This document shows, piece after piece, positions 1,344 to 31,780 of a DNA stretch of 64,000 nucleotides. The position numbers were made by a program, and so were the translations under genes. Source of the stretch: an uncultured Anaerolineae bacterium (GTDB lineage Bacteria; Chloroflexota; Anaerolineae; Aggregatilineales; UBA3940); NCBI GenBank assembly GCA_964603985.1, contig CAZRXG010000001.1, positions 170,363-234,362 of the forward strand, in the 5' to 3' direction. The notes under the pieces are model-generated. The model made no database searches and had not been told where the DNA came from. It was given only the letters and a program-made list of their open reading frames with translations. Numbering within the stretch: position 1 is the first letter of the stretch; every line of letters starts with the position of its first letter.

Positions 1344-1408
1344 CGTCAATGTAGCAGTTTCCTTGTGCTCGCGAGCGACTAGTTGAAGACGGGTATAAGA
1401 ACCCCGCC

Positions 1409-4400
1409 ATGAACAACACACACTTGCCAAAGGAGAACCCCGCACACACCACGCAGTCACGCGTAGTTGGTGCCGTCATGGTGGTCGGCGGCGGCATCGC
1501 CGGGATGCAGGCTGCGCTGGACCTGGCCGATCAGGGCTTCAAGGTCTATCTGGTCGAGAAGCAGTCAGCCATCGGTGGGCATATGGCGCAGCTTGACAAG
1601 ACCTTTCCCACCAACGACTGTGCCATGTGCAGCATCAGCCCGAAGCTGGTGGACACCGGACGCCACCCCAACATCGAGATCCTGACCGGTACTGACGTTC
1701 TTGATGTTGAGGGGAAGAGCGGGGACTTCACCGTGACGCTGCGCCGGAGGCCGCGTTACATCGACGCGACCAAGTGCGTCGGCTGCGGTGACTGCGCTGA
1801 GGTGTGTCCGGTTTCGCTGCCCGACCCGTACGAAGAAGGGTTAAAAGACCGCCGGGCAGTTTATCGGCTGTACGCCCAGGCCGTTCCCACCGCCTACGCC
1901 ATCGAGAAGCTGGGCACCGCCCCCTGCCGGGGTGCCTGCCCCGCCGGACAGCGCGCGCAGGGCTACATTGCGCTGATCGCACAGGGACGCTACAGGGAAG
2001 CGCTGCGCGTCATCACCGAGGACAACCCCTTCCCCAGCGTTTGTGGGCGCACGTGCCACCACCCCTGCGAGGGACACTGCACGCGTGCCCTGGTCGATGA
2101 GCCGGTGAGCATCATGTCGCTCAAGCGCTTCGTGGTGGATTTTGCCCTGGCCTACGGGCGCGAGCCGGTCGAGCCTGCCCCGCGCACACAGCCCGAGTGG
2201 GTTGCCATCGTCGGCGCGGGGCCTGCCGGTCTGACTGCTGCCCACGACCTGGCGAAGATGGGATACGGCGTGACCGTCTACGAGGCGCTGCCGGTGGCTG
2301 GTGGTATGATGCGGGTCGGGATTCCGGCTCACCGGCTGCCCAAGGGCGTGCTTCAGCAGGACATCGATGACATTCTGGCCCTGGGCGTGATGCTCAAGAC
2401 CAACTCCCCGGTTAAAGATCCCACCGAGCTGCTTGAGCAGGGCTACGACGCGGTCTGCCTGGCGACCGGGATCTCGTCCCGCGACCACTCGCTGGGAATT
2501 GAAGGCGAGGACGCCGAAGGGGTGCTCTCGGCGGCTACCTTCCTGCGTAAGATCAACCTGGGAGAGCCGGTCACGGTCGGCGAGCGTGTGGCCGTGGTGG
2601 GCGGTGGAGTCACTGCCTTGGACGCGGCCTCGGTCGCCCGGCGGCTGGGCGCCACCGAGGTTTACGTGGCGCTCGACCGCCCGCGCGGTGAGCTGCCTGC
2701 CTACGAGCGAGAGGTTGCGGCCATTGAGGCGGAGGGCATCCACCTGCACGAGCGCGTCACCGCCACACGCATCCTGACCGAGAACGGCAAGGTAGTCGGG
2801 GTGGAGCTCGCCCAGACGGGCAAGGGGATGACGGTGGACGAGCAAGGACGCCGCCGCCCCAAGATCGAGCCCGGCACCGAGTTCACGCTCGAAGTTGATA
2901 CTGTCATCGGCACCGTGGGCCAGTTCTCGGACCTGTGCTTCCTTGACCAGCGCTTCGACGACCTGGAAGTGGACAAGGACACACTGGCGAGCCAGGTCCC
3001 CGGCCTGTTCGTGGTCGGTGGCCGTAAGACCGGGGCGAGCTTTATTATCGAGGCCGTGGCGCTCGGCCACCGGGTGGCAACCTCCATGCACCGCTACCTG
3101 CGAGGCGAGCCGCTGGATCGGGCCGATCCCCCGGCCCCACCCGTTTTGAAGTTCACCCGCGAGGAGTTGCTGGAGCGGGTGCAGAGCGGCGAGATCAGCC
3201 CGCAGCCGCGCGCCGAACCGGCCCTGTTGCCCATGGAGGAGCGGGTGACCAGCTTCCGCGAGGTCGTGCTGGGCCTGACCGAGCGTCAGGCGCGGGCCGA
3301 GGCGCAGCGCTGCATCCAGTGCGGGATCTGTTCGGAGTGCCTGGCCTGCGTGTACGCCTGCGGCGCCGACGCCATCGACCACAGCATGGTGGCCCAGGAG
3401 GAGCAGGTCAACGTGGGGGCGATTATCCTTGCTCCCGGCTACCAGGTCTACCACGCCGAGCTTTCCGAGGAGTACGGCTACGGGCGCTACCCCAACGTGA
3501 TCACCGCGCTCCAGTTCGAGCGGCTGCTTTCCGCCTCCGGCCCGACGATGGGCCACATCCAGCGCCCGTCCGACGGGCAGACGCCGGAGCGGATCGCCTT
3601 CTTGCAGTGCGTTGGCTCGCGCGATCAGAGCCACGACTACTGCTCGGCGGTGTGCTGCATGTACGCCACCAAAGAGGCCCTTATGGCCAAGGAGCACCAC
3701 CCCGACCTGGACATTCACGTCTTCATGATGGACATGCGTGCCTTTTCTAAGGGCTACTGGGGCTACTTTGAGACCGCGCGCGACCGCTACGGCGTGCAGT
3801 ACACCCGCTGTCGGCTCAGCGACGTGAAGGAGGACCCGCACACCCATAACCTGACTGTGCACTACCAGGACGAGGATGGAACGACCCACGACGAGACCTT
3901 TGGCATGGTTGTGCTGTCGGTCGGCATGGAGATTTCGGAGTCGGTGCGCGAGTTGGGGCGGCGGCTGGGTGTCGAGCTGGATGAGTACGGCTTCTGCCAC
4001 ACGGTACAGTTCAACCCGCTGGAAACCAGCCGCCCCGGCCTCTACGCCGTCGGGCCGTTCCGCGAGCCGAAGGACATCCCCGAGTCGGTTATCGAGGCCA
4101 GCGGGGCGGCGGCAGCGGCTGCCACGCGGCTCGGCTCGTCACGCTTCACGCTGACCACGACCCCTGAGTTCCCACCTGAGCGGGACATCAGCGGTGAGGA
4201 ACCGCGCATCGGTGTGTTCGTCTGCCACTGCGGTTCGAACATCGGCGGCTACCTCGACGTACCCTCCGTCGCCGGGTATGCGGCAACGCTGCCGGGCGTC
4301 GTCCACGCCGAGGATAACCTGTACTCCTGCTCGCAGGACAGTATTCGCCACATCGCCGAGCAGATCGAGGAGCACAATCTCAACCGGGTGGTGGTCGCCA

Positions 4401-5926
4401 GTTGCACGCCGATCACACACCAGCCGCTCTTCCGGGACTGCCTGCGGAGTGCCGGGCTGAACCCTTACCTGTTCGAGATGGCTAACATCCGCAACCAGTG
4501 CTCGTGGGTGCACTCGCATGACCAGGACATCGCCACGGACAAGGCCGAAGACCTGGTGCGGATGGCCGTCGCGCGCGCGGCGCTGCTTGAGCCGCAGCAG
4601 ACCTTCGAAGTGCCCATCCAGCATGCCGCGCTGGTGGTCGGTGGGGGGGCTGCCGGGATGACTGCCGCGCTCTCACTGGCCGGGCAGGGCTTCCCGGTTC
4701 ACCTGGTCGAGCGCGAGGCCGAACTGGGTGGCAATCTGCGTCACGTGTACAGTGCCATCGACGGCAAAGACCCGCAGCGCGTCCTGCGCCAACTCGTCGA
4801 GCAGGTCGGAGACGACCCTTTGATCACCGTTCACCTGGAGAGCGAGGTAGTCGCGTCGAGCGGCTTCATGGGCAACTTCACCAGCACGATTCGGCGTGCG
4901 GATGGGGGCCAGGCTGACATCCAACACGGGGTGATCATCCTGGCTACCGGCGCACAGGAGTACCGGGGGCCGGAGTACGGCTACGGCTCCGATCTGCGTA
5001 TCGTGACGCAGCAGGAATTTGAGGCCAGGATTGCAGAAGACGAAGATTTGCCCGCCTCGGTGGTGATGATCCAGTGCATCGGCCCTGCCGAGCATTTCTG
5101 CAGCCGCATCTGCTGCACGGTGGCGCTCAAGAACGCGCTCACACTGAAAAAGAAGAACCCGGACGCGCAGGTCGTGATCCTGTACAGGGACATCCGCACC
5201 TACGGCTTCAAGGAGCGGCTCTACACCGAAGCGCGCGAAAAGGGTGTGATCTTCGTGCGCTACGACGACGATCACCGACCGGTGGTCGAGGCGGACGGCG
5301 ATTTGAGAGTTCAGGCCTGGGACCCGGCCCTCAAGCAGCCACTTGTCCTGGAGCCGGACCTGCTGGTGCTGAGCATGCCGGTCGTGCCGCGCGACGACGT
5401 GCGCAAGCTGGCCGGGCTGTTCAAGGCCAACATCGACAACGACGGTTTCTTCCTGGAGGCGCACGTCAAGCTCCGCCCGGTCGACTTCGCCTCAGATGGG
5501 GTGTTCATGGCCGGGATGGCGCACTACCCCAAACTGCTGGACGAGGCTATGATTCAGGCGCAGGCCGCCGCCTCGCGGGCCGCACGGGTGCTCAGCCGCG
5601 AGACGTTGAAAGCGGGCGGGCGCGTGGCCGTAGTCGATCCGCTGATGTGCACCGGTTGTTTGACCTGCGTGCGGGTCTGTCCCTTCGGCGTGCCGCAGAT
5701 CAGGCGCGACCTGACCGGCGTGGGCGGTGTGGAGGGAGCGGCCTACATCGAGACCGCCGTGTGCCAGGGCTGTGGATCGTGCGTTGCCGAGTGCCCGGCG
5801 GGGGCGATCCAATTGATGCACTACACCGACGCGCAGTTGGCGGCCAAGGTTGGAGCACTCCTCGATCCGTCGATGGATTACGTGTCGCTTGGTCGGGCTG
5901 TGGCATCGGAGGGGAAGAAACGGTGA
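1409..5926 (+). CDS. hdrA: HdrL-type large heterodisulfide reductase subunit A: two HdrA FAD modules, an inserted GltD/NfnB-like NAD(P)H oxidoreductase module and ferredoxin motifs
   Basis: VVGGGIAG and DKTFPTNDCAMC (HdrA); CRGACP/CGRTCHHPCEGHC, VGAGPAG, VVGGGVTA (GltD-like); RIGVFVCHCGSNIG, second VVGGGAAG, C-terminal CxxCxxCxxxCP pairs. Confidence 0.9.
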   Translation: MNNTHLPKENPAHTTQSRVVGAVMVVGGGIAGMQAALDLADQGFKVYLVEKQSAIGGHMAQLDKTFPTNDCAMCSISPKLVDTGRHPNIEILTGTDVLDVEGKSGDFTVTLRRRPRYIDATKCVGCGDCAEVCPVSLPDPYEEGLKDRRAVYRLYAQAVPTAYAIEKLGTAPCRGACPAGQRAQGYIALIAQGRYREALRVITEDNPFPSVCGRTCHHPCEGHCTRALVDEPVSIMSLKRFVVDFALAYGREPVEPAPRTQPEWVAIVGAGPAGLTAAHDLAKMGYGVTVYEALPVAGGMMRVGIPAHRLPKGVLQQDIDDILALGVMLKTNSPVKDPTELLEQGYDAVCLATGISSRDHSLGIEGEDAEGVLSAATFLRKINLGEPVTVGERVAVVGGGVTALDAASVARRLGATEVYVALDRPRGELPAYEREVAAIEAEGIHLHERVTATRILTENGKVVGVELAQTGKGMTVDEQGRRRPKIEPGTEFTLEVDTVIGTVGQFSDLCFLDQRFDDLEVDKDTLASQVPGLFVVGGRKTGASFIIEAVALGHRVATSMHRYLRGEPLDRADPPAPPVLKFTREELLERVQSGEISPQPRAEPALLPMEERVTSFREVVLGLTERQARAEAQRCIQCGICSECLACVYACGADAIDHSMVAQEEQVNVGAIILAPGYQVYHAELSEEYGYGRYPNVITALQFERLLSASGPTMGHIQRPSDGQTPERIAFLQCVGSRDQSHDYCSAVCCMYATKEALMAKEHHPDLDIHVFMMDMRAFSKGYWGYFETARDRYGVQYTRCRLSDVKEDPHTHNLTVHYQDEDGTTHDETFGMVVLSVGMEISESVRELGRRLGVELDEYGFCHTVQFNPLETSRPGLYAVGPFREPKDIPESVIEASGAAAAAATRLGSSRFTLTTTPEFPPERDISGEEPRIGVFVCHCGSNIGGYLDVPSVAGYAATLPGVVHAEDNLYSCSQDSIRHIAEQIEEHNLNRVVVASCTPITHQPLFRDCLRSAGLNPYLFEMANIRNQCSWVHSHDQDIATDKAEDLVRMAVARAALLEPQQTFEVPIQHAALVVGGGAAGMTAALSLAGQGFPVHLVEREAELGGNLRHVYSAIDGKDPQRVLRQLVEQVGDDPLITVHLESEVVASSGFMGNFTSTIRRADGGQADIQHGVIILATGAQEYRGPEYGYGSDLRIVTQQEFEARIAEDEDLPASVVMIQCIGPAEHFCSRICCTVALKNALTLKKKNPDAQVVILYRDIRTYGFKERLYTEAREKGVIFVRYDDDHRPVVEADGDLRVQAWDPALKQPLVLEPDLLVLSMPVVPRDDVRKLAGLFKANIDNDGFFLEAHVKLRPVDFASDGVFMAGMAHYPKLLDEAMIQAQAAASRAARVLSRETLKAGGRVAVVDPLMCTGCLTCVRVCPFGVPQIRRDLTGVGGVEGAAYIETAVCQGCGSCVAECPAGAIQLMHYTDAQLAAKVGALLDPSMDYVSLGRAVASEGKKR

Positions 5927-6378
5927 CAGAAAATACCCGGCTGTATATTATCTCGTACTGCTGCGAGCATTGCGCCTACGCCGCAGCCGACCTCGCGGGC
6001 GGGCTGAGGATGCAGTATCCTCCGGAGGTCAGGATCGTCCTGCTGCCCTGCACGGGCAGGATCGACGTGCTGACGGTGCTGCGCGCCTTTGAGGATGGCG
6101 CCGACGGCGTGATGGTGGCCGGTTGACTGCCTGGGGACTGCCATTACCTGGAAGGTAATGCTAACGCCAGGCGCCGCGTAGAGCGCGTTAGGGAACTGCT
6201 GGCCCAGATTGGCCTGGAGCCAGAGCGGATGCAAATGTTCAATATGTCGGCTGCGATGGCGGGCGAATTTGTCGCCAGAGCAGAGGAGATGACCCAGCGG
6301 ATTGCGGCCCTGGGGCCGAGTCCTTTACACGTCACATCGATCACTTCATCGAAGATAAACACGGAGAGTAAAACATGA
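5923..6378 (+). CDS. mvhD: MvhD-family [2Fe-2S] protein, selenocysteine-containing (in-frame TGA at 6124-6126, codon 68)
   Basis: GTG overlaps hdrL stop; YCCEHCAY..PCTGRID..GADGVMVAG-TGA-LPGDCHYLEGN..GLEPERM; frame continues to a TGA overlapping the metV ATG; SECIS-like hairpin follows the TGA. Confidence 0.9.
6129..6172 (+). promoter_or_regulatory. bacterial SECIS element (candidate)
   Basis: Lower stem GCCTGG/CCAGGC, upper stem CATTACC/GGTAATG, apical loop TGGAA, starting 3 nt after the in-frame TGA. Confidence 0.8.
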
Positions 6379-7058
6379 TTGTTGCCGAACAAAAACCACT
6401 CGAGGAGATCAAGAAGCTCGTCGGAGACGCCGAAAAGGTGCTGGTTGTAGGATGCGGCACCTGTGTGACGGTCTGCTTCGCTGGCGGTTCGCGCGAGGCG
6501 GCCATTGTGGCGGCATCGCTGCGCATGGCCTCCAAGCTCGACGGCGGCGAGAAAGACGTCACCGACGTAACCGTCCAGCGCCAGTGCGAGTGGGAATACC
6601 TGGACGAGATCAAGGACGCAGTCGGCGAGGCCGACCTGGTGCTGTCGCTGGGCTGCGGGATCGGCGTGCAGGCGATAGCCGAGCACTTCCCCGACACCTG
6701 GGTCGTGCCCGGCCTGAACACCACCTTCCTGGGTTTGCCTGAGGAGCAGGGCATCTGGTCCGAACGCTGCGCGGCCTGCGGCGACTGCATCCTGGGGCTG
6801 ACGGGGGGCATCTGCCCCATCGCGCGTTGTTCCAAGTCGCTGCTTAACGGGCCGTGTGGTGGATCGGAGAACGGGCACTGTGAGATCGACCCCGACGTCC
6901 CCTGTGCCTGGCAGCTGATCTACGACCGGCTGAGCAGTATGGATAAGCTCGACGTTCTGCTGGAAATTCAACCCCCGAAAAACTGGAGCACCTCGCGTGA
7001 TGGTGGGCCGCGCAAGATCGTGCGCGAGGACCTGCGCCTGGTGTCGGAAGAGGAGTAG
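6375..7058 (+). CDS. metV: methylenetetrahydrofolate reductase Fe-S/Zn subunit MetV
   Basis: MIVAEQKPLEEI, GCGTCV, GCGIG, CAACGDC, GGICP, LLNGPCGG motifs; adjacent to metF. Confidence 0.9.
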   Translation: MIVAEQKPLEEIKKLVGDAEKVLVVGCGTCVTVCFAGGSREAAIVAASLRMASKLDGGEKDVTDVTVQRQCEWEYLDEIKDAVGEADLVLSLGCGIGVQAIAEHFPDTWVVPGLNTTFLGLPEEQGIWSERCAACGDCILGLTGGICPIARCSKSLLNGPCGGSENGHCEIDPDVPCAWQLIYDRLSSMDKLDVLLEIQPPKNWSTSRDGGPRKIVREDLRLVSEEE

Positions 7059-7061
7059 GCC

Positions 7062-8078
7062 ATGACCGCTGAAGCTAGCAGCAACGGGCATCTGGTTGGC
7101 TCAAACCTGGAGCGTGTGCTTCGGGCCGGGCACTTCGCCGTCACAGCCGAGCTTGGCCCTCCCCAGAGCGCCGACGGCGACGAGATACGCCACAAGGCCA
7201 CTTTGCTGCGGGGCAACTGCGACGCGGTGAACATCACCGATAACCAGACGGCAATCGTCCGCATGTCCAGCATTGCCGCCGGAGCCATCGTCGTGCAGGA
7301 GGGGCTGGAGCCAATCGTCCAGATGACCTGTCGCGACCGCAACCGCCTGGCGATCCAGAGCGACCTGCTGGGCGCGTACGCGCTGGGAATGCGCAACCTG
7401 CTGTGTCTCACCGGCGACCACCAGACCTTTGGCAACCACCCCACGTCCAGGAACGTGTTTGACATCGACTCGCTGCAACTGTTGCAGATGGTGACCGCCA
7501 TGCGCGACGACTGCGTCTTCCAGTGCGGTGACGCGTTCAAAGGGCAGGAGCCACGCTTCTTCATCGGCGCGGCGGCTGCGCCCTTTGCCGACCCGATTGA
7601 CTTCCGTCCCTACCGCCTGGCAAAGAAGGTCAAGGCCGGAGCGAACTTCATCCAGACCCAACTCGTCTACGACATCGAGGCGTTTGAGGAATACATGGCA
7701 AAGGTACGCGAGATGGGGCTGCACGAGCAACTTTACATCCTGGCCGGGGTTGGGCCGCTGAAAAGTCCGGGCATGGCCCGCTATATGAAGAACAGCGTCC
7801 CCGGCATCCTCGTCAAAGACGAGTACATCGAGCGGATGAAGGCTGCCGGTGAACCCTGGGCGGGGAAATCCAAGGACGAGATGACCCCGGAGGATAAAAA
7901 AGCTCGATCCGAGGCCTGGAAGCAGGAGGGCATCAACATCTGCGTCGAACTGATCCAGCGGCTGCGTGAAGTAGAAGGTGTGGCCGGTGTGCATATCATG
8001 GCGATTGAGTGGGAAGAGGCCGTCGAACCGATTGCCTCCGGTGCCGGTCTGCTGCCACGCCCCGAAGTATCCCTCTAG
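7062..8078 (+). CDS. metF: methylenetetrahydrofolate reductase catalytic subunit MetF
   Basis: VTAELGPP, NITDNQ, QMTCRDRNRLAIQ, LTGDH, FIQTQ, GVHIMA motifs. Confidence 0.93.
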   Translation: MTAEASSNGHLVGSNLERVLRAGHFAVTAELGPPQSADGDEIRHKATLLRGNCDAVNITDNQTAIVRMSSIAAGAIVVQEGLEPIVQMTCRDRNRLAIQSDLLGAYALGMRNLLCLTGDHQTFGNHPTSRNVFDIDSLQLLQMVTAMRDDCVFQCGDAFKGQEPRFFIGAAAAPFADPIDFRPYRLAKKVKAGANFIQTQLVYDIEAFEEYMAKVREMGLHEQLYILAGVGPLKSPGMARYMKNSVPGILVKDEYIERMKAAGEPWAGKSKDEMTPEDKKARSEAWKQEGINICVELIQRLREVEGVAGVHIMAIEWEEAVEPIASGAGLLPRPEVSL

Positions 8079-8093
8079 TCCTGGAGATGGCTC

Positions 8094-9518
8094 ATGGAAG
8101 AAAAACAACAACCAACCACCGAACCAATGACCATCGACTCTGAGCTGGCGCAGCGCGTCATGGACGAGCTGGGGCAGAACGTCTATCTGTGCTACCAGTG
8201 CGTCAAGTGCACCAGCGGCTGCCCGGTATCGGAGTTCTTCGATTGGCAGCCCAACCAGATCATGCGTGCCGTGCAGTTGGGCCAGGAGGACATCGCCCTG
8301 CGCTCCAAGACGCCGTGGCTGTGCGCCTCATGCCAGACGTGTACGACGCGCTGCCCGCAGGGGTTGGACATCGCGGCGATCATGGAGTTCCTGACCCGCG
8401 AGGCGCTTAAACGGGACATCAAACCCCAGGTGCCCGAAACAGACTACTTCAACAAGGCCTCCATGCGCGAGGTGAAACTGTGGGGGCGGGCCTATGAGCT
8501 GGGCCTGATGATGGAGATGAAGCTCCGCACGCTCGACATCATGGGTGACATGGACCTGGGTGTCAGGATGCTTCTGAAGAACAAGCTGGCTCTTCTGCCC
8601 AGCCCGACGCGCCCGCCGGACAAGGTAAAGCCTATGCCCGGCGCAGCGCGTGCCATCGCCTACTATCCGGGCTGCTCGCTGCACTCCACGGCACCGGAGT
8701 TTGACATCTCAACGCGGGCCGTGTGCGAGGCGCTCGACATGACCCTGATCGAGCCGAAGGGCTGGGTGTGTTGCGGCAGTTCGGCTGCCCATCGCGCCGA
8801 CCCGGCTGAAGCGCTACGCTTGCCGATGGTAAACCTGTCCATCATCGAGCAGAGCGGATTCAACGAAGTGACGATGCCGTGCGCGATGTGCTTCAGCCGC
8901 CATAAGTTTGCCCAGCACGAGATCAGGCACGACGAGCAGCACAAGGCTGAGGTAGAGGAAGCATTGGACTACAATTACCAGGACACGGTGCACGTCAGCA
9001 CGCTGATCGAGGCAATCCACGATCACGTTGGAACAGAGGCCGTCAGCGAGAAAATCGAGAAGCCGCTCGACGGGCTGCGTGTGGCCTGTTACTATGGCTG
9101 CCTGCTGACGCGCCCGCCCGAAGTCACCGGGGTGGAACATCCCGAAAACCCGACCGACATGGACGAGCTGATGGTGGCACTGGGGGCAGAGGTCGTCGAT
9201 TGGTCCTACAAGACCAACTGCTGTGGGGCGGGTCTGTCGCTGACGCGCCCTGAGATCGTGCTTGAACTGAGCAGCGCCATCATCGAGCATGCCCGCGAAG
9301 CCGGTGCCGAAGTGATCGCAGTGGCCTGCCCGATGTGCCACGCCAACCTGGATGCCCGCCAGTTCCAGATGGGCCTGGAAGCGCCCGTGCCGGTGCTGTA
9401 CTTTACACAGTTGATGGCGCTGGCCCTGGGGCTGCCGGAGAAGGCTGCCGCACTGAGCAGGAATTTGGTCGACCCGCGCCCAATCCTGAAGAGCAAGGGC
9501 TTTCTCGGCCAGCGCTGA
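8094..9518 (+). CDS. hdrCB: fused heterodisulfide reductase subunits C and B (HdrC-HdrB)
   Basis: N-terminal CYQCVKCTSGCP and CASCQTCTTRCP (HdrC); two CCG domains YYPGC..CCGSS..PCAMC and YYGC..CCGAG..ACPMC (HdrB). Confidence 0.88.
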   Translation: MEEKQQPTTEPMTIDSELAQRVMDELGQNVYLCYQCVKCTSGCPVSEFFDWQPNQIMRAVQLGQEDIALRSKTPWLCASCQTCTTRCPQGLDIAAIMEFLTREALKRDIKPQVPETDYFNKASMREVKLWGRAYELGLMMEMKLRTLDIMGDMDLGVRMLLKNKLALLPSPTRPPDKVKPMPGAARAIAYYPGCSLHSTAPEFDISTRAVCEALDMTLIEPKGWVCCGSSAAHRADPAEALRLPMVNLSIIEQSGFNEVTMPCAMCFSRHKFAQHEIRHDEQHKAEVEEALDYNYQDTVHVSTLIEAIHDHVGTEAVSEKIEKPLDGLRVACYYGCLLTRPPEVTGVEHPENPTDMDELMVALGAEVVDWSYKTNCCGAGLSLTRPEIVLELSSAIIEHAREAGAEVIAVACPMCHANLDARQFQMGLEAPVPVLYFTQLMALALGLPEKAAALSRNLVDPRPILKSKGFLGQR

Positions 9519-23331: not shown

Positions 23332-23465
23332 GCAAAGTACCTCCTGCGTACTGATAGTATAGAGGGAGTTGGTCAGAAAAAAAGTGGGCGCGGCTGTGAA
23401 GCTGGGTTATGATTCTTGCGGCTGCCGCGTCGAGGCAGCACTCTCCAGTCGCAAAGGAGAAAACC

Positions 23466-24119
23466 GTGCACGAAGAACTATTCGAGGCCATGGCCCGGAG
23501 TGTCATCGACGGTGAAGAAGAGATCGCCGTGGAGTTAGCACAGCGGGCCGTCACCGGGGACATCGATCCCCTGGAAGCCATCAACCGGGGGTTTGTCATC
23601 GGCGTGAACGAGGTCGGCGAGCGGTTTGGCTGCGGTGAGGTGTTCCTGCCCGACCTGGTGATGGCGGGCAAGGCGATGAAGGCCGCCATCGCCTTGCTGG
23701 AGCCGGAGATGACCCGCCGGGGCACCGAGCGCCAGGTGTTGGGCCGGGTGGTGCTGGGCACCGTCGAGGGCGACATCCACGAGATCGGTAAGATGCTGGT
23801 CGGCATCATGCTGACGGCGAACGGTTTTGAGGTCCACGACCTGGGTGTGGACGTGCCGGTCGCGAAGTTCGTCGAGAAGGCGCGCGAGGTGAGCGCCGAC
23901 ATCGTCGGCCTGAGCGCCCTGCTGACCACGACGATGCCCCAGCAGAAGCGCGTCATTGAGCTGCTGGAGGACGGCGGTCTGCGCCATAGCGTCAAGGTGA
24001 TGGTGGGCGGCTCGCCCGTCACCCGGAGTTGGGCCGACGAGATCGGCGCGGACGGCTACAGCGAGGACGCCATCGGCGCGGTGAAGGTCGCCAAAGATCT
24101 GGTCGAGGCGTCGTCATGA
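23466..24119 (+). CDS. cobalamin-binding corrinoid protein (MttC/MtbC-like)
   Basis: B12 cap (GEVFLPDL), EGDIHEIGK (DxHxxG), DLGVDVP, LSALLTTTM, VGGSPV; GTG start after AAGGAG. Confidence 0.92.
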   Translation: MHEELFEAMARSVIDGEEEIAVELAQRAVTGDIDPLEAINRGFVIGVNEVGERFGCGEVFLPDLVMAGKAMKAAIALLEPEMTRRGTERQVLGRVVLGTVEGDIHEIGKMLVGIMLTANGFEVHDLGVDVPVAKFVEKAREVSADIVGLSALLTTTMPQQKRVIELLEDGGLRHSVKVMVGGSPVTRSWADEIGADGYSEDAIGAVKVAKDLVEASS

Positions 24120-25570
24120 GCCGCGAGATTACCTCTATCAGCAGCCCCCGGTTGAGCCTCAACATTCTCAGCCGGGAGGACGTGGAGCGCATCCACACCG
24201 CCACACTGGATGTCATCGAGAAGACCGGCGTGCGCTTTCCCTCGCAGCGTGCGCTCGACATCTGGGAGGCTCACGGCGCGACCGTCGACCGGGACACCAT
24301 GATCGTCCGGGTTCCCGGTCAGGTGATCGAAGAAGCGCTCAAGCACGCGCCGCCGACCTACATGCTGGCCGCCCGCGACCCGGCGCAGGATCTGCCGCTG
24401 GATGGCAATCACGTCTTCGTAGGCACCGACGGCTGCGGCGTGGAGGTGCTCGACCTGTACACCGCCGAGCGCCGCCGATCATGCTGGCAGGACGTGGCCG
24501 ACATCGCACGCGTCGCCGATGCTGTGGAAGAGATCGCCTTCCACTGGGTGGCCGTCTCGGCGCAGGATCGCCCGCCCGAATCGCGCGGCCTGCACGAATT
24601 GCTCGCCATCTGGCAAAACTCGACCAAGCACGCCCAGACGGAAAGCATTTACGCCACCGAGGCGGAAGCGCGGGCCGGTGTCGAGATGGCTGCCACCATT
24701 GCCGGGGGGCACGACGCTCTGCGCCAGCGCCCGGTGCTCTCGGTCATGCAGTGCACGGCACCGCCGCTGGGGCACGACGGCGGCAGCCTCAACGCCGCCC
24801 TGATCGCCGCCGAGGCGGGTCTGCCAGTCGGGTTCATGACGATGGCCTCCTGCGCCTCGACCGGCCCGACGACGATGGCCGGTACGCTGGTCGTCGGCAA
24901 CGCGGAGGTGATCAGCGCGCTGGCGCTGATCCAGCTTGCCTATCCCGGTGTGCCGGTCTTTTACGCCGCCGCCCAGACGGCGATGGATCTCCGCACGGGC
25001 GCTTACACCGGCGGCGGCCCGGAGGACTTCCTGTTCGGCGCGGCCACCAACGTGCTGTCCGACTTCTACGACGTGCCGCTCTCGATGGGGTCGTTTGCCA
25101 CCGGTGCAAAGGAACCGGACTGGCAGGCGGGCATCGAGAACAGCCTCTCGACCTTTATGGCGTCGGTCGTCATGTCGGATATGCTGCTGGGCGTGGGGCT
25201 GCTGCACGGCAGTCGCATCTGGTCGTTTGAGCAGATGCTGATGGACTGTGAGATCTTCAGCATCGTGCACAAGATGATGGCCGGTATCCCGGTCAGCGAC
25301 GAGACGCTGGCCCTCGACGTGATCGACGCGGTGGGGCCGGGTGGTCACTTTCTGGCACAAAAGCACACCCGCAAACACATGCACGACCTGTGGCAGCACA
25401 CGCTGATGGACCGCCGCCCCTACAGCGTGTGGGAGGAGAAGCGCGATGGGGCCCGCGAGTGGGCGCGCGAAAAGGCGCAGCAGATTCTGGAGACGCACCA
25501 GCCTGAGACGCTCGACCCGAAGCTGGCCGCCGAATTGGAGCGTATTATCGCCTCGGTTGAAGAGGCGTGA
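24116..25570 (+). CDS. mttB: trimethylamine methyltransferase family protein (MttB-like, no pyrrolysine)
   Basis: ATG overlaps corrinoid gene stop; ERIHTATLDVIEKTGV, GTLVVGNAE, PDWQAG, SFEQ..DCEI, VGPGGHFL; no in-frame TAG. Confidence 0.9.
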   Translation: MSREITSISSPRLSLNILSREDVERIHTATLDVIEKTGVRFPSQRALDIWEAHGATVDRDTMIVRVPGQVIEEALKHAPPTYMLAARDPAQDLPLDGNHVFVGTDGCGVEVLDLYTAERRRSCWQDVADIARVADAVEEIAFHWVAVSAQDRPPESRGLHELLAIWQNSTKHAQTESIYATEAEARAGVEMAATIAGGHDALRQRPVLSVMQCTAPPLGHDGGSLNAALIAAEAGLPVGFMTMASCASTGPTTMAGTLVVGNAEVISALALIQLAYPGVPVFYAAAQTAMDLRTGAYTGGGPEDFLFGAATNVLSDFYDVPLSMGSFATGAKEPDWQAGIENSLSTFMASVVMSDMLLGVGLLHGSRIWSFEQMLMDCEIFSIVHKMMAGIPVSDETLALDVIDAVGPGGHFLAQKHTRKHMHDLWQHTLMDRRPYSVWEEKRDGAREWAREKAQQILETHQPETLDPKLAAELERIIASVEEA

Positions 25571-25705: not shown

Positions 25706-27943
25706 ATGGCACAATCTTCCGGTAGATCGTTGCTGTCTCGCCTGCTTGATGAGCTTCATCCCAGTCGCCTGCTGCCCGGCCTGACGGCGGGTCTGGTCAT
25801 CGGAATCATCGTGGTGATCGTCTCGATCTCTTTTGCGGCCCTGATTTTCTCCGGCGATCTGGCCGGGTACGCCTCCACCGGGATGGGACTTGTGCTGTTC
25901 AGCGCCGTTGTCATGAGCCTTGTGACTGCGTTGACAAGCTCCTTCCCCGGCATGGCCGCCGTCCCGCAGGACACACCGGCGGCCATTCTGGCTCTGGTTG
26001 CAGCCGCGATTGCCTCCAACATGGCCCCTGACGCAGTGGGGGAGAGTGTCTTCCTCACAGTTGTCGCTGCCATCATACTGACTTCGCTGCTCACCGGCGT
26101 TTTCTTCCTGGCGCTGGGGTTTTTCAAACTCGGCAGCCTGATCCGGTTCGTCCCCTACCCGGTCATCGGCGGTTTCCTGGCTGGCACCGGCTGGCTCCTG
26201 ATCCCGGGCAGCATCGGCGTCATGACGGGCATTTCCCCCACCCTGGCCCAACTCCCTCTTCTGTTTCAATCTGCGATACTGGCCAGGTGGCTGCCCGGTT
26301 TGATCTTCGCCGTGCTGCTGCTCGTGATCCTGCGCCGCGTCAATCACTTCCTGGTCATGCCCGCGATGCTGCTGGGGGCAGTCGGGCTGTTCTATATCGT
26401 CCTGTGGCTGACGAACACCCCGGTCGCCGAAGCGGGAGCGCAGGGCTGGTTGATGGGCCCGTTCCCGGAAGGTAGCCTCTGGCAGCCCACCCTGACCTTC
26501 CACGCGCTGGCGCAGGCGGACTGGTCGGCGATATTCGGGCAGATCGGCGGCGTGGCCACGATCCTGGCCGTCGGTGCGGTGGCTCTGCTGCTCAACGCCA
26601 GCGGGATCGAGCTTGTTGCCGAGCAGGACATCGACCTGGACCGCGAATTGCAGGTCGCCGGGCTGGGCAATATCATCGCCGGGCTGGGCGGTGGCTCCGC
26701 CGGTTACCAGGCCATGAGCCTGACGGCGCTGGGCTACCGGGTCGGCGCGAGAAGCCGCCTGATGGGCCTGTTCGCGACAGCCGTGTGCGGCGTGGCGCTC
26801 ATCTTCGGAGCGTCCCTGCTGTCTTTCTTCCCCAGGGTGGTGTTGGGCGGCCTGCTGATGTTCCTCGGTCTGGCCTTTCTGGTCGAGTGGCTGGTCGATG
26901 CCTGGGCGACGCTCCCCAAGACCGACTACGCCGTCGTTCTGCTGATCGTGGTCGTGATCGGCGCGGTGGGCTTTCTAGAGGGTGTCGGCGTCGGCTTGGT
27001 CGCGACCATCATCCTGTTTGTCGTCAACTACAGCCGCGTCAGCGTGGTCAAAGACTGCCTCTCCGGTGTCACCTACCACAGCAACGTCGAGCGCCCCCGC
27101 CTCTATCGTCAGATCCTACAGCGCAAAGGCCACTGGCTCTACGTCCTCAGGCTTCAGGGGTTTATCTTCTTCGGCACGGCCCACGGGCTGCTGGAGCAGA
27201 TCCGCCAGCGCATCGACGCCCCCAACCTCTCGCCCCCGCGCTTCGTCGTGCTTGACTTCCGCCTGGTGACCGGTCTCGATTCGTCCGCCGTGTTCAGCTT
27301 CGTCAAGCTCCGGCAACTGGCCCAGCGGCACGGTGTTGTGCTGGTGTTCACCCACCTCTCGCCCGGTATCCGCCGCCGGGCGGAGAAGCTGGTCTTTGAG
27401 GACGGCGAGGGTCACATCTTCCCCGACCTGGATCACGGGGTCGAGTGGTGCGAAGACCAGATGATCGCCACCGTCGAAAGCACCGGCCTGGCGACCCGCC
27501 CCAAAACCCTCACCGATCAGCTCACCGAGGCCCTCCCCGGCCCCGACGATGTGGCTCGCCTGATGGAGTATCTACGGACGGAGAGCGTCGATCCAGGGGA
27601 TTACCTGGTGCGCCAGGGCGACGCGCACGGGGGGATTCACTTCATCGAGTCGGGCCAGGTGACCGCCCTCCTGGAGCAGGACGACGGCAGCACGCTTCGC
27701 CTACGAACCATGAGCGCCGGTACGGTGATCGGCGAGATGGGCGTCTACCTGAGCGCACCGGCCTCTGCTTCGGTCGTGGCCGAGCAGCCCACGACACTCT
27801 ATATCCTGTCCGCCGACGCGCTCGCCCGGATGGAGGTGGACGACCCTGCCCTCGCCTCGGCCTTTCACCGCTTCATGGCAGGGCTGCTGGCCGAGCGGCT
27901 GGACGGTGCCACCGACACCATTCAGGCCCTTCTCCGCGACTGA
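25706..27943 (+). CDS. SulP/SLC26 family anion transporter with STAS and C-terminal cNMP-binding domains
   Basis: Many TM helices, PYPVIGGFLAG; STAS LQGFIFFGTA..LDFRLVTGLDSS; cNMP domain LVRQGD..GTVIGEMG. Confidence 0.9.
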   Translation: MAQSSGRSLLSRLLDELHPSRLLPGLTAGLVIGIIVVIVSISFAALIFSGDLAGYASTGMGLVLFSAVVMSLVTALTSSFPGMAAVPQDTPAAILALVAAAIASNMAPDAVGESVFLTVVAAIILTSLLTGVFFLALGFFKLGSLIRFVPYPVIGGFLAGTGWLLIPGSIGVMTGISPTLAQLPLLFQSAILARWLPGLIFAVLLLVILRRVNHFLVMPAMLLGAVGLFYIVLWLTNTPVAEAGAQGWLMGPFPEGSLWQPTLTFHALAQADWSAIFGQIGGVATILAVGAVALLLNASGIELVAEQDIDLDRELQVAGLGNIIAGLGGGSAGYQAMSLTALGYRVGARSRLMGLFATAVCGVALIFGASLLSFFPRVVLGGLLMFLGLAFLVEWLVDAWATLPKTDYAVVLLIVVVIGAVGFLEGVGVGLVATIILFVVNYSRVSVVKDCLSGVTYHSNVERPRLYRQILQRKGHWLYVLRLQGFIFFGTAHGLLEQIRQRIDAPNLSPPRFVVLDFRLVTGLDSSAVFSFVKLRQLAQRHGVVLVFTHLSPGIRRRAEKLVFEDGEGHIFPDLDHGVEWCEDQMIATVESTGLATRPKTLTDQLTEALPGPDDVARLMEYLRTESVDPGDYLVRQGDAHGGIHFIESGQVTALLEQDDGSTLRLRTMSAGTVIGEMGVYLSAPASASVVAEQPTTLYILSADALARMEVDDPALASAFHRFMAGLLAERLDGATDTIQALLRD

Positions 27944-28112: not shown

Positions 28113-28883
28113 TCACTGCGTCTTCAGGAACGCAATAATGGCGTCGACCTGCTCCTGGGTCAGCAGCCGCCCATATTCGGGGAACATCGACGCGTTTTCA
28201 AAGCCGGGCGGTTTATAGGCTGCGGGTGTGACAATTGAGGTGAAGAGGTAAGTCTCCGTGGACTGCCGCCGGACGCGCTTGTCGGCCGTCCTGCCAATGT
28301 CCTGCAATGATGGGCCGACGAGCACCGATCCGTCAAGCGAGTGGCACATCGAGCAGGCCGGAGCGTACTCGGTGCCGTTGTAGAACAACTCCTCCCCCAG
28401 AACGACCATCGGATCGGGCGTTGGCTCCGGGCTGATAGACCGGACGATGTTCGTTCCAACCTGCAAGGCCCAGCTTGCACGGTCATCCCAGCGCAGCACG
28501 TACCCGGTGAAATCAATGAAGAGCGTCAGCAACAGCAGGCTTATGCCGATCAGCCAGTTGGAGCGACGCTTCTTGTAGCCACCGCTGAAGATGACGCGCA
28601 TCATGTGCAGCGTCACCACGATCACCATTGCCTGGGCTGCCCAGTAGTGCATGTTGCGGATCAGCCAGCCGTACGGCACGACGTAGGCGATCAGTTTGAC
28701 GCTGGCGTTGGCCTCCTCCGGCGTCGGCACGTAGAAGAACATCTCCAGGATGCCGGTCACCAATAGGATGGCGAACAGCGCCGCGCTGATCGCGCCCAGG
28801 TGGAAGGTATACATGAAGCGGGCTGCAGGGGTTGGCGTGATGGGCCTGCGCAGGTGTTCGTAGAAATTAGGACGACGAGCCAT
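28113..28883 (-). CDS. cytochrome b N-terminal half (helices A-C) fused to a class I cytochrome c
   Basis: GILEMFFYVP, IRNMHYW..TLHMMRV (His pair), FTGYVLRWD..WALQVGTNI, linker SPEPTPDP, CSMCH and SMFP. Confidence 0.88.
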   Translation of the reverse strand: MARRPNFYEHLRRPITPTPAARFMYTFHLGAISAALFAILLVTGILEMFFYVPTPEEANASVKLIAYVVPYGWLIRNMHYWAAQAMVIVVTLHMMRVIFSGGYKKRRSNWLIGISLLLLTLFIDFTGYVLRWDDRASWALQVGTNIVRSISPEPTPDPMVVLGEELFYNGTEYAPACSMCHSLDGSVLVGPSLQDIGRTADKRVRRQSTETYLFTSIVTPAAYKPPGFENASMFPEYGRLLTQEQVDAIIAFLKTQ

Positions 28884-28923
28884 AATACACAACCTTGCTT
28901 GGCGGAAGGATCAAGGCAGCGCC

Positions 28924-29415
28924 CTAAGAGGCGGACAGCCGGAAGTCGGGCTCGACCTGGTCGGCGCGATCTACGACGAGCTGCCCGTCGCTGCCCCAGG
29001 AGAGCCGCACAAACCGCAGTGGGAGGGTGGCCGGACCGTGCATCACAGTGCCATCCTGGGCAAACCGGCTGCTGTGGCAGGGGCAGTAGTAGGTGCCGTC
29101 GGGCTGGAGGTTGACCGTGCAGCCGAGGTGCGTGCAGATCCCGTCAACGGCGTAGAAGCCCGCTCCATCCTTATGGAGCCACACCTGTGCCTCCTCGACG
29201 TAGACCGGTAGTTCGGGCAGGTTCGCGGGCGCTCCCAGCGTGAAACGCGTGACCTGTGTCGCAGGCGGCTCGAAGCGTATGTATCTGAGCAGTTCGGCCA
29301 CGCTCGCCGCAAGCGGAACGGCCCAGGCAAAGTTCAGTATCCCTTTCAGCGCTTCGCGGCGTGTCAGCGATTTCGCGGTTGATTTGACACTCGATGCGAT
29401 CGATTTTACAGACAT
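28924..29415 (-). CDS. Rieske [2Fe-2S] protein of a Rieske/cytochrome b complex
   Basis: Tat-like TRREALK plus TM; CTHLGC and CPCHSS boxes; GPA..PL. Confidence 0.92.
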   Translation of the reverse strand: MSVKSIASSVKSTAKSLTRREALKGILNFAWAVPLAASVAELLRYIRFEPPATQVTRFTLGAPANLPELPVYVEEAQVWLHKDGAGFYAVDGICTHLGCTVNLQPDGTYYCPCHSSRFAQDGTVMHGPATLPLRFVRLSWGSDGQLVVDRADQVEPDFRLSAS

Positions 29416-29419
29416 TCAG

Positions 29420-30103
29420 TCACCTCAAGGCAGCACGGACGGTCAGTCCAAGAACGATCAGGAACAGCACGGTCAGGATAATCTGGGCAACCCGGCCTTG
29501 GCGGTTGAACCACACAGCGATGCCTTCATTCGACCGGTCCGTGTAGGGCAGCAAAGTCAGCAGCAGGACGACCACCATAGGCACCAGCACCCCCGCAATC
29601 GCCGGGGGCCAGATGCGTAGCAGTTCCTGCACCCAGATAAAGATCCAGGGCGCTTTTGAGTGCTCGGTCAGCGAGCCTATCTCGGCGGCTTTGCCAACCG
29701 GCACGTCAACGAAAGCCGAAATAATTACCAGGGTCGCGATGGTGATGAAGAAGGTGAGTGTCTCGCGGCGGACGATCACGGCGCGGTCGACCTTCTCCAC
29801 TTCCTCCTCAGGCGATTCGCGCTCCGGGCTGGAGACTCCCCCGTCCCGGCGAACGCGAAATCCGTGCCAGGCGATCAGCAGCAGCATCGGGACCGACAGC
29901 CCCATCACGTGCCAGGCGTAAAAGCGCAACAGCGTCACCTCGCTGATGGTCGGGCCACCGACGATCAGCCGGTACAGGGCTTCTCCCAGGGTAAGCGGTC
30001 CCTCGTCCCCAGTAGCGGGGGCTGCACAGGCCGCCAGGAGGAAAGCGCTCCCCGCGAGCAGGATGCCCAGAACGATCCTGGTTCTAAGCACTGGTTTGGC
30101 CAA
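29420..30103 (-). CDS. cytochrome b C-terminal half (cd2, helix D, subunit IV-like E-G) with lipoprotein signal peptide
   Basis: TTG start after GAGGAG; lipobox LAAC (Cys26); GEALYRLIVGGPTISEVTLLRFYAWH..WH; KAPW (PEWY-like); LLPYTD. Confidence 0.85.
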   Translation of the reverse strand: MAKPVLRTRIVLGILLAGSAFLLAACAAPATGDEGPLTLGEALYRLIVGGPTISEVTLLRFYAWHVMGLSVPMLLLIAWHGFRVRRDGGVSSPERESPEEEVEKVDRAVIVRRETLTFFITIATLVIISAFVDVPVGKAAEIGSLTEHSKAPWIFIWVQELLRIWPPAIAGVLVPMVVVLLLTLLPYTDRSNEGIAVWFNRQGRVAQIILTVLFLIVLGLTVRAALR

Positions 30104-30400: not shown

Positions 30401-31780
30401 ATGAGTCGTTCACTTGATCGCGCAAAGAAATCGCTACCGCGCGTTAATTACGCCGTCCTGATCGGCACCGCTGTGCTGATCGTTGCACTGATCGTGGCGG
30501 GGATAAGACAGGCGCGCCCGTCCTGGCACCGCTACACCGGCAGTGCCCAGGTGCGCATTCTGACACCCACTCTGACCGGCGAGCCGGAGCTTTGCCTGAC
30601 CTGCCACTACGGCATCCAGGAGATCAGCGTGGCACACCAGGTCGACGCCTTTGGCTGTGTGGTGTGCCACGGCGGCGACCGTCTCTCACTCGACGAGGAA
30701 ACCGCCCACCAGGACTTGATCGGGGGACGCAATCCCTCCGATCTGGCCGTCGTCCAGCAGGGCTGCGGCAGCAGCGATTGCCACGGCGGCAGCCCCGAAG
30801 ACGCCCGTGACCACATCGCCCGCGTCGAGCGTAACGTGAGGACGACCTACGCAGGCGCGATCAACCAGGTGCTTCTCAGTCTCAACCAGATCGACGAGGG
30901 CGATTTGCTTTATGGCGTCGAGGCGGTGGAGGACGGCGATCCCGTCCACCCGGAGGCAGTTGCCGCGCTGCAAACGTTCGACCCGGCAGACTTCGACAAC
31001 CCGCTCATCACCACGTTTGGCGAAGATTGCCAGACCTGCCACCTGAGAGCCGAGCCGGTCGACGAGCCTTATCACTACCGCAGCGTCGGCTGTGCAACCT
31101 GCCACGTGCTGTATAACAGCACCGGGCTGTACACCGGCGACGACCCAACCATCCCCCATGACGAAGCGGGCCACATGGCGCAGCACCGCCTCACCACCCA
31201 GATCCCGTTCACTCAGTGCAACACCTGCCACAACCGGGGTAACTACTCTGTGGAGCAGATGTCGTTCACCCCGCGCGACGACGTTCCTTCGCCGCATGCC
31301 CTGCCCTCCGACCCGACCAAGTACCGGCTGGCCCAGTACTACCAGCCCACCACGCTGTACGCGCTGTGCGAATGGGAGCTTGACTGCATCGACTGCCACA
31401 CGGCCAGAGAAGTGATGGGCGATGGTGATATTCACCCCAACCAGGCAAGCGCGCAAAGCGTCCAGTGCCGGACCTGTCACGGCACGCCAGACGAGCTGCC
31501 TACCTTCGTCACCGTCACCGACACCGACAACCCCACGGTGCGGCGCGCCGACCTCAATCCCTATTATGACGTTATCGTCGGCACCCAAGTGCTCCTGGCT
31601 CCGGATGGTGATACGCTGGGGGCCGTCCAGCTTGTCGGCGATCAGGTTGTGCAGATCGGCAAGGTGACGGGCCGTCGCTTCATCATCCCGATGGTGATGG
31701 GGTCGGACTGCCCGCAGGACCCGGAGCAGCAGGAGGCCTACTACTGCCGCCAGTGCCATGCCGTCAACGCGTCACAATGA
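30401..31780 (+). CDS. membrane-anchored multiheme cytochrome c (8 CxxCH + 1 CX4CH)
   Basis: N-terminal TM; CLTCH, CVVCH, CGSSDCH, CQTCH, CATCH, CNTCH, CIDCH, CRTCH, CRQCH. Confidence 0.9.
   Translation: MSRSLDRAKKSLPRVNYAVLIGTAVLIVALIVAGIRQARPSWHRYTGSAQVRILTPTLTGEPELCLTCHYGIQEISVAHQVDAFGCVVCHGGDRLSLDEETAHQDLIGGRNPSDLAVVQQGCGSSDCHGGSPEDARDHIARVERNVRTTYAGAINQVLLSLNQIDEGDLLYGVEAVEDGDPVHPEAVAALQTFDPADFDNPLITTFGEDCQTCHLRAEPVDEPYHYRSVGCATCHVLYNSTGLYTGDDPTIPHDEAGHMAQHRLTTQIPFTQCNTCHNRGNYSVEQMSFTPRDDVPSPHALPSDPTKYRLAQYYQPTTLYALCEWELDCIDCHTAREVMGDGDIHPNQASAQSVQCRTCHGTPDELPTFVTVTDTDNPTVRRADLNPYYDVIVGTQVLLAPDGDTLGAVQLVGDQVVQIGKVTGRRFIIPMVMGSDCPQDPEQQEAYYCRQCHAVNASQ

Follow-up and report, generated by a model that had tools for sequence, protein, structure and literature searches.

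The cytochrome b of Rieske/cytochrome b complexes may be encoded by one gene or by two. In the second case a single break point has been known: a survey of 2012 places all known splits between helices D and E (PMC3509893), a 2014 study of motifs in the quinol-oxidation (Qo) site, which paired split genes by consecutive locus tags, describes only N/C (b6/subunit IV-type) splits (PMC4122944), and later reviews give the same break point (PMC5600118). Here we describe a locus in 64,000 nucleotides of DNA from an uncultured Anaerolineae bacterium of the Chloroflexota (GenBank assembly GCA_964603985.1, contig CAZRXG010000001.1, positions 170,363 to 234,362; hereafter the window), where cytochrome b is cut between helices C and D. 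The N-terminal half (N-half) is fused to a cytochrome c, the C-terminal half (C-half) starts with a predicted lipoprotein signal peptide, and the gene of a Rieske iron-sulfur protein lies between the two. An initial annotation, made from the sequence alone, knew of no description of this architecture, and in the full-text literature outside subscription-only papers we likewise found none of a cd-loop split, of a lipobox on a cytochrome b piece, or of this gene order.

Among described complexes, b6f and the bc complexes of Bacillus and heliobacteria resemble the window in having a two-gene cytochrome b, seven transmembrane helices and a helix D histidine spacing of 15. In Bacillus a cytochrome c is also fused to one of the cytochrome b pieces. 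However, the b6/subunit IV cut falls between D and E, with all four haem-binding histidines and both haems on one chain. In the window, with its permuted gene order, the cut falls between C and D, a lipoprotein signal stands on the second piece, the cytochrome c is attached to the first, and the haem ci cysteine (CxGG motif) is absent. Known cytochrome c fusions also hold a class I cytochrome c covalently on the outer side of cytochrome b, but there the domain follows the last helix of cytochrome b or of subunit IV, whereas in the window it follows cd1, near the lid of the Qo site. Further afield, the alpha and beta subunits of cytochrome b559 and the SdhC/SdhD pair offer b haems with bis-histidine ligation from two chains, in unrelated folds.

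The closest relatives of the window locus are unsplit Anaerolineae operons for Rieske/cytochrome b and an octahaem cytochrome, probably of the 'APWY clade' of Kao and Hunte 2014, where the APWY-type Qo motif is described (PMC4122944). Identity to the closest of these operon types is 57-64% in the N part and 44-51% in the C part. Like the window they have a seven-helix cytochrome b (337 residues in these operons) with the A-P-W motif at the Qo site, Rieske and multihaem proteins as partners, and one cyclic gene order. They differ from it in that cytochrome b is a single chain, with no lipobox and no fused monohaem cytochrome c. The Geobacter ExtM-N-O-P-Q cluster comprises the Rieske protein ExtO, the cytochrome b ExtP, the membrane protein ExtQ and the multihaem ExtM (PMC5877670). 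All three protein types of the window have their best NCBIfam match in this cluster, which likewise couples a Rieske/cytochrome b module to multihaem cytochromes. That said, the scores stay far below the equivalog cutoffs (165 vs 290 for ExtP, 44 vs 150 for ExtQ and 166 vs 800 for ExtM), and ExtP/ExtQ are cut in the ordinary b6/subunit IV manner.

Results

The coordinates of the locus are collected in Table 1. The open reading frames lie exactly where the initial annotation had put them. An upstream TTG of the N-half gene at 28892 is unused in homologues, and the ATG is taken as its start.

Table 1. Features of the split cytochrome b locus. Positions are those of the window; dN/dS is the ratio of nonsynonymous to synonymous substitution rates between the window and its relative L089.
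Feature	Position	Strand	dN/dS	Details
C-half of cytochrome b, gene	30103-29420	minus	0.32	227 residues; TTG start; GAGGAG ribosome-binding site in front
Predicted type II (lipoprotein) signal peptide	30026..30103	minus		MAKPVLRTRIVLGILLAGSAFLLAAC; rule-based features
Lipobox LAAC	30026-30037	minus		Cys26, predicted lipidated first residue of the mature protein
cd2 surface helix and transmembrane helix D	29846..29989	minus		His65 (29909-29911), His80 (29864-29866)
Qo-site motif A-P-W-I	29642..29653	minus		PEWY equivalent at the start of the ef helix; aligned to mitochondrial 'kpeWyf'
Rieske iron-sulfur protein, gene	29415-28924	minus	0.24	163 residues
Rieske motifs	29341-29367; 29119-29136; 29074-29085	minus		Tat-like LTRREALKG; CTHLGC; CPCH, respectively
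N-half-cytochrome c, gene	28883-28113	minus	0.06	256 residues counted from the ATG
N-half, cytochrome b portion	28434..28883	minus		Helices A, B, C and cd1; ends ...GTNIVRSI; His79 (28647-28649), His93 (28605-28607)
Pro-rich linker SPEPTPDP	28410..28433	minus		8 residues between cd1 and the cytochrome c domain
Class I cytochrome c domain	28113..28409	minus	0.08 (domain alone)	CSMCH 28341-28355; distal ligand Met233 28185-28187
Multihaem cytochrome c, membrane-anchored, gene	30401-31780	plus, divergent from the operon	0.18	459 residues; 8 CxxCH and 1 CxxxxCH

The N-half and the C-half are contiguous parts of a cytochrome b, with neither overlap nor gap. Residues 1-150 of the N-half match positions 10-138 of the 189 in the Pfam model Cytochrome_B (E 2e-30), and in a search of the PDB residues 27-150 align to residues 34-158 of cytochrome b6 (E 5e-26). 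This homology stops at ...WALQVGTNIVRSI, after which come SPEPTPDP and the cytochrome c. In the C-half, residues 39-80 match Cytochrome_B positions 141-181 and residues 147-217 match Cytochrom_B_C, while residues 39-210 align to residues 156-328 of mitochondrial cytochrome b (E 5e-6). On the NCBIfam models the halves span ExtP positions 5-149 and 151-204 of 205, and the C-half runs on into ExtQ. Unsplit relatives run uninterrupted through the cut site (...GTNLLKEIPGLGSALYR..., also found as GTNLVKEIPGIGxxLYRxxVGG). A cut in the cd loop, as put forward in the initial annotation, is therefore borne out, and the alignments of the halves to solved b6 and bc1 structures narrow its place to the turn between the surface helices cd1 and cd2 on the outer side of the membrane.

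Excluding the signal peptide, three transmembrane helices in the N-half and four in the C-half make seven in total. The C-half runs in order through signal peptide, lipobox, linker, cd2 and helices D, E, F and G. AlphaFold2 models of the single halves, used for secondary structure only, have A, B, C and cd1 in the N-half, and the signal, cd2, D, E, F and G in the C-half.

The haem ligands are divided between the halves. The two helix B histidines, 14 apart, are on the N-half and the two helix D histidines, 15 apart, are on the C-half; all four are invariant in homologues. In the structures of bc1 and b6f each b haem is ligated by one helix B and one helix D histidine. Because these sit on different polypeptides here, each b haem would bridge both chains, so that the ligation by one histidine per chain that had been proposed from the sequence follows from the conserved pairs together with the known structures. 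In the Qo motif P152 and W153 are invariant, and relatives carry APWF or APWI. One detail of the initial annotation stands for the window only: His28 does align to Cys35 of b6, the position of the haem ci cysteine, but it is no conserved feature, as relatives carry H, Y or G, and on this alignment it is a quirk of the lineage.

The N-terminus of the C-half has the features expected of a bacterial lipoprotein, namely a charged n-region, a hydrophobic h-region and a lipobox of the form [LVI][ASTVI][GAS]C. It reads MAKPVLRTR, with K and R in the n-region, then the hydrophobic IVLGILLAGSAFL, then LAAC; twelve linker residues separate the lipobox from cd2 (LGEALYRLIVGG). Of the 97 C-half clusters, 90 have an L-x-[AGS]-C lipobox ahead of cd2; the other seven are N-terminally truncated fragments. 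Cys26 is invariant in an alignment of 43 sequences, with the rest of the signal peptide and the linker nearly free to vary, and the distance from the lipobox cysteine to the helix D motif is 25-37 residues, mostly 29-32. That a signal exports cd2, as initially suggested, is thus strongly supported, the lipobox cysteine being invariant in all 90 complete C-halves. Because of this invariance we predict, with moderate confidence, that the C-half is processed by signal peptidase II to leave a lipidated Cys26. The predicted topology is consistent in itself: the C-half must begin outside the membrane, and a cleavable exporting signal would be its only route there without an added helix.

A lipobox on a respiratory subunit has a precedent in the same phylum. 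ActE of the Roseiflexus alternative complex III has a lipobox and an observed N-terminal lipid anchor (PMC7439408). Like the C-half it belongs to a respiratory complex of Chloroflexota, but it is a soluble cytochrome domain, whereas the C-half is a polytopic membrane protein whose first surface helix would be the part held by lipid. We also considered the signal peptide as a remnant of helix C and found no support for this, as a profile of helix C and cd1 scores the real signal regions no better than shuffled ones.

The domain fused to the N-half is a class I cytochrome c. It matches Pfam PF00034 with 25 bits against a gathering score of 21.3, its haem-binding residues C177, C180 and H181 and the distal ligand M233 are invariant, and among solved structures it is closest to the cytochrome c domain of caa3 oxidase subunit II (1w2l, E 2e-8). 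From GTN to CxxCH there are 33-36 residues in all 28 fused homologues measured, despite a varying linker sequence. A derivation of this domain from the cytochrome c genes of unsplit operons found no support, as a hidden Markov model of the domain finds no match among those genes at E <= 1.

As for the partner proteins, the Rieske protein matches Pfam Rieske (E 3e-10), with NCBIfam matches of the PetC/QcrA type below cutoff. The multihaem cytochrome has an N-terminal transmembrane anchor and matches Pfam Cytochrom_c3_2 and, below cutoff, an ExtM-like NCBIfam model (9e-49); in most relatives its gene lies between the C-half and Rieske genes. Residues 122-128 of this protein (30764-30784, plus strand) read CGSSDCH, a C-x4-CH pattern that appears as C-G-x-x-x-C-H in relatives and is possibly a ninth, unconventional haem site.

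The window locus is transcribed in the order C-half, Rieske, N-half, with a 4-nt and then a 40-nt spacer. Scans around the operon for sigma-70 promoters and intrinsic terminators gave none above background.

The N-half search returned three length classes: about 256 residues, with N-half and cytochrome c (33 clusters, 55-100% identity); 152 residues, N-half only, ending GTNLLRxIG[RQH] (12 clusters); and about 337-342 residues, which are unsplit cytochromes b. The C-half search returned about 97 clusters of 185-264 residues, followed by the same unsplit proteins. The same cut is therefore present in about 97 C-half and 45 N-half clusters, and every source name given is Chloroflexota, Anaerolineae or Anaerolineales. 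The database names are generic, e.g. 'hypothetical protein', 'c-type cytochrome', 'cytochrome b N-terminal domain-containing protein' or 'cytochrome b-561'.

Two loci of the 152-residue class, L007 and L018, host a conserved, membrane-anchored protein of 313-317 residues with three CxxCH motifs and no Pfam match. It is encoded about 0.6-0.9 kb upstream on the opposite strand (L007 3222-4163, minus; L018 2064-3017, minus), and is a candidate for a replacement electron partner.

Among other assemblies, 13 distinct split loci repeat this cut and order. L089 and L090, two of them, are independent JGI assemblies of a 93-97% identical relative with the exact layout of the window, including the divergent multihaem gene. 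The C-half of the window itself has no entry in the contig index, and a 93%-identical relative stood in for it in this comparison. On the longer contig, L089, genes for SulP, MttB, a corrinoid protein, a phosphoesterase, dnaX, ybaB and recR are common to the flanks of the window on both sides. The initial annotation had allowed that the arrangement might be unique to one assembly, and these recurrences show that it is not. Every split locus examined keeps both halves in one operon next to a Rieske gene. The dN/dS ratios (Table 1) show that all of the genes are under purifying selection.

Across 1.84 billion representative proteins the split clade is essentially one cluster at 50% identity, and no second lineage with a signal-peptide-led C-half was found among them. 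Candidates for independent cd-loop splits, matching from about residue 35, all start with ...LDFTGYVLRWD... (helix C/cd1) and were rejected: they still contain helix C and represent unsplit genes whose calls were truncated. Judging from the databases, the split architecture is restricted to one clade of uncultured Anaerolineae-type Chloroflexota.

The gene orders of 88 loci, from GTDB species representatives and metagenomes, indicate how the split arrangement relates to the unsplit one. The commonest split order is C-half - multihaem - Rieske - N-half-cytochrome c (L002-L005, L009-L012 and L014-L017). A variant, C-half - Rieske - N-half-cytochrome c, is found in L013 and, with the multihaem gene inverted upstream, in the window, L089 and L090; the 152-residue class has C-half - Rieske - N-half (L007, L018). 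Unsplit operons come as cytochrome c - Rieske - cytochrome b (U1), Rieske - cytochrome b - multihaem (U2), cytochrome b - multihaem - Rieske (U3, the commonest) and cytochrome c - cytochrome b - Rieske (U4). When the N and C parts of cytochrome b are written as bN and bC, the cyclic order bN > bC > multihaem > Rieske > is common to U2, U3 and the split form, and the split order is this ancestral circle opened inside cytochrome b. The permuted order reported in the initial annotation is hence verified and can be accounted for by cyclic permutation of the ancestral operon.

Among the unsplit relatives themselves (loci L008-L088), U2 can be turned into U3 by cyclic permutation, suggesting that the operon was duplicated and trimmed more than once in Anaerolineae. 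Another unsplit locus, L006 of an Anaerolineales (346-6852), has cytochrome b and multihaem genes after those of a molybdopterin oxidoreductase, a 4Fe-4S protein and an NrfD-like membrane protein. Its 9.2-kb contig yielded no Rieske gene, and cytochrome b may work there without a Rieske partner.

In a neighbour-joining tree of the concatenated N and C regions (79 sequences, 316 columns) the split forms make up one clan in 199 of 200 bootstraps, with the topology (fused group 2, (short L007, (short L018, fused group 1))). The fused forms were monophyletic in none of the 200. A tree of only the 150-residue N-half region failed to group the split forms together; we prefer the concatenated tree for its longer alignment and for the rare characters that the split forms share. 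The split is derived, because helices C and D are contiguous in all other cytochromes b, and the direction of change can be read because the split clade is nested among unsplit relatives. We conclude with high confidence from these comparisons that the split arose once, from an unsplit operon. The fused cytochrome c was probably present at the outset; the short class would then have lost it along with the multihaem gene. An apparent closest unsplit relative, the 341-residue cytochrome b P0046 from a 1227-bp ENA contig, was taken to be chimeric and left aside: it joins ~90 N-terminal residues that match N-halves of the split clade to a remainder that matches another unsplit group.

Genomic context

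Convergent with the N-half gene is a gene for a 745-residue SulP-family transporter fused to STAS and cyclic-nucleotide-binding domains (25706-27943, plus strand), which ends 170 bp short of the N-half stop. The relative L089 has an additional gene, for a 382-residue HEAT-repeat protein, between the SulP and N-half genes. Further along, at 23409-25570 (plus strand), a corrinoid-binding protein (B12-binding and B12-binding_2 domains) is followed by a 513-residue MttB-family methyltransferase, a pair that also adjoins the operon in L089. The MttB-family frame is uninterrupted, without an in-frame amber codon for pyrrolysine (Pyl), and the pair looks like a non-Pyl MttB-type methyltransferase pair, e.g. 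for a quaternary amine.

At 1409-9518 (plus strand) a 1505-residue flavoprotein/iron-sulfur protein, with three Pyr_redox/NAD-binding regions and several 4Fe-4S domains, is encoded together with MTHFR and a CCG-domain/4Fe-4S protein (HdrB/C-like). This cluster resembles the MetF-Hdr-type clusters for electron-bifurcating methylene-tetrahydrofolate reductase of anaerobes. Together with the MttB pair it hints at methyl-group metabolism.

Discussion

In this work we have described a cytochrome b that is divided inside its haem-binding bundle. The features of a Rieske/cytochrome b complex are all present, i.e. the histidine pairs of helices B and D, an adjacent Rieske protein with CxHxGC...CxCH, and the Qo motif. 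We consider it likely that the locus encodes a working menaquinol-type 'APWY' Rieske/cytochrome b quinol oxidoreductase, made from two chains and of a single origin. Our confidence in the parts of this reading differs: it is high for the anatomy and conservation of the split complex, moderate for the reassembly of the halves into one bundle as predicted from their sequences, and lower for the tethered cytochrome c as a putative c1/f equivalent that accepts electrons from the Rieske protein.

We propose the following working of the complex. The N-half would insert helices A-C, leaving its C-terminus on the outer (P) side of the membrane, where the fused cytochrome c would receive its haem. The lipoprotein signal peptide would export the N-terminus of the C-half, and helices D-G would then insert in their normal topology. 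The lipidated cysteine, 12 residues ahead of cd2, would tether cd2 outside and so replace the covalent link to helix C. The two chains would rebuild the four-helix bundle, with haems bL and bH each bound by a helix B and a helix D histidine. Of the two electrons from a quinol oxidized at the Qo site, one would pass by the Rieske cluster and the tethered cytochrome c to the cytochrome with 8-9 haems, and the other would cross the b haems. In bc1 the Rieske head docks at the cd1/cd2 lid of the Qo pocket. The cytochrome c is proposed as the c1/f equivalent because its short tether, conserved in length, would set it beside that lid.

A natural two-chain bundle is plausible because cytochrome b6 assembles with haem in vitro from separate halves and after proteolysis of its loops (PMC5730185). 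Those fragments show that the bundle tolerates lost loop continuity; they are man-made, whereas the split of a bc-type bundle described here is natural.

With regard to the origin of the fission, a U3- or U2-type operon would have been duplicated in tandem, and the first bN and the second bC-multihaem-Rieske would then have been lost. Such duplication followed by trimming would keep a functional complex at each step. We regard tandem duplication as the likely route, at lower confidence than the single origin itself. Taken as a whole, the combination of b-haem sites across a subunit interface, a cut Qo lid, a tethered cytochrome c in place of c1/f, a lipid-held cd2 and a stepwise origin by duplication and trimming is a tentative proposal, to which we give a little under an even chance.

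Several observations count against parts of this account. The AlphaFold2 models of the single halves are of low confidence (predicted local distance difference test, pLDDT, of 64 and 67). The fused cytochrome c and the multihaem gene are both missing from the sub-lineage with the 152-residue N-half (L007, L018); the split design can thus do without the cytochrome c, whose role as Rieske acceptor is uncertain. No remnant of the proposed duplicate operon was found. Lastly, complexes of the APWY type are uncharacterised, and reverse operation has been proposed for them (PMC4122944).

Other explanations of the locus can be weighed against the same data. The first lines of doubt that a metagenome-type assembly invites are that the arrangement is an assembly artefact or that the operon is decaying into pseudogenes, and the chimeric look of P0046, on its 1.2-kb contig, might encourage them. 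Yet independent assemblies from different samples show the identical cut and order, with the window's flanking genes present in two of them, and the frames stay intact across 55-100% identity with dN/dS well under 1. Moreover, no frameshift or chimera can give rise to a signal peptide together with a lipobox and an in-frame cytochrome c. Misassembly and pseudogene readings were tested and are rejected on the independent assemblies and the dN/dS ratios; we give them almost no credence. Could the genes be sound and the halves still never reassemble? They might serve separate roles, e.g. the N-half as an anchor for cytochrome c, or each half as a haem-binding homodimer, and the faster evolution of the C-half (dN/dS 0.32 vs 0.06 in the N-half) would suit such a division. 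We find this very improbable, as the four histidines at canonical spacings, the cd1/cd2 sequences and the Qo motif are all kept and matter only in an intact cytochrome b, and as both halves stay together in one operon, always adjoining the Rieske gene.

A further alternative concerns the hydrophobic N-terminus of the C-half, which might remain uncleaved and unlipidated, as an eighth transmembrane helix or signal anchor that orients cd2 outward. This would satisfy the topology equally well, and the AlphaFold model shows residues 6-27 as a helix. A plain anchor, however, needs no lipobox pattern, and in the 90 complete sequences it is precisely the cysteine and L-x-[AGS]-C that are invariant while all other positions of the segment vary. 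Lipobox processing of a respiratory subunit is, in addition, documented in Chloroflexota (PMC7439408). A signal anchor is thus unlikely, and a cleaved lipoprotein signal remains our preferred reading of this segment.

Conclusion

The locus provides a second naturally tolerated break point in cytochrome b, inside the haem bundle and previously unreported. The regularity of the D/E split has served as a phylogenetic marker and as an argument over fusion versus fission (PMC3509893, PMC4122944, PMC5600118). For the present split the direction of change can be read from the nesting of the clade and the mechanism, a cyclic permutation of the operon, from the gene orders. There is also a practical consequence for curators, as pipelines that rely on adjacency or Pfam domains to pair the N and C genes of cytochrome b will annotate these complexes wrongly.

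The complex is a natural test case for the assembly of a di-haem transmembrane bundle from separate chains. It would also be an uncommon use of a lipoprotein signal, orienting a polytopic membrane protein, and its short tether would bring a cytochrome c close to the Qo site, at the docking place of the Rieske head. If our reading is true, these Anaerolineae hold a dated and polarised fission of cytochrome b, which would bear on the dispute over whether the short or the long cytochrome b came first.

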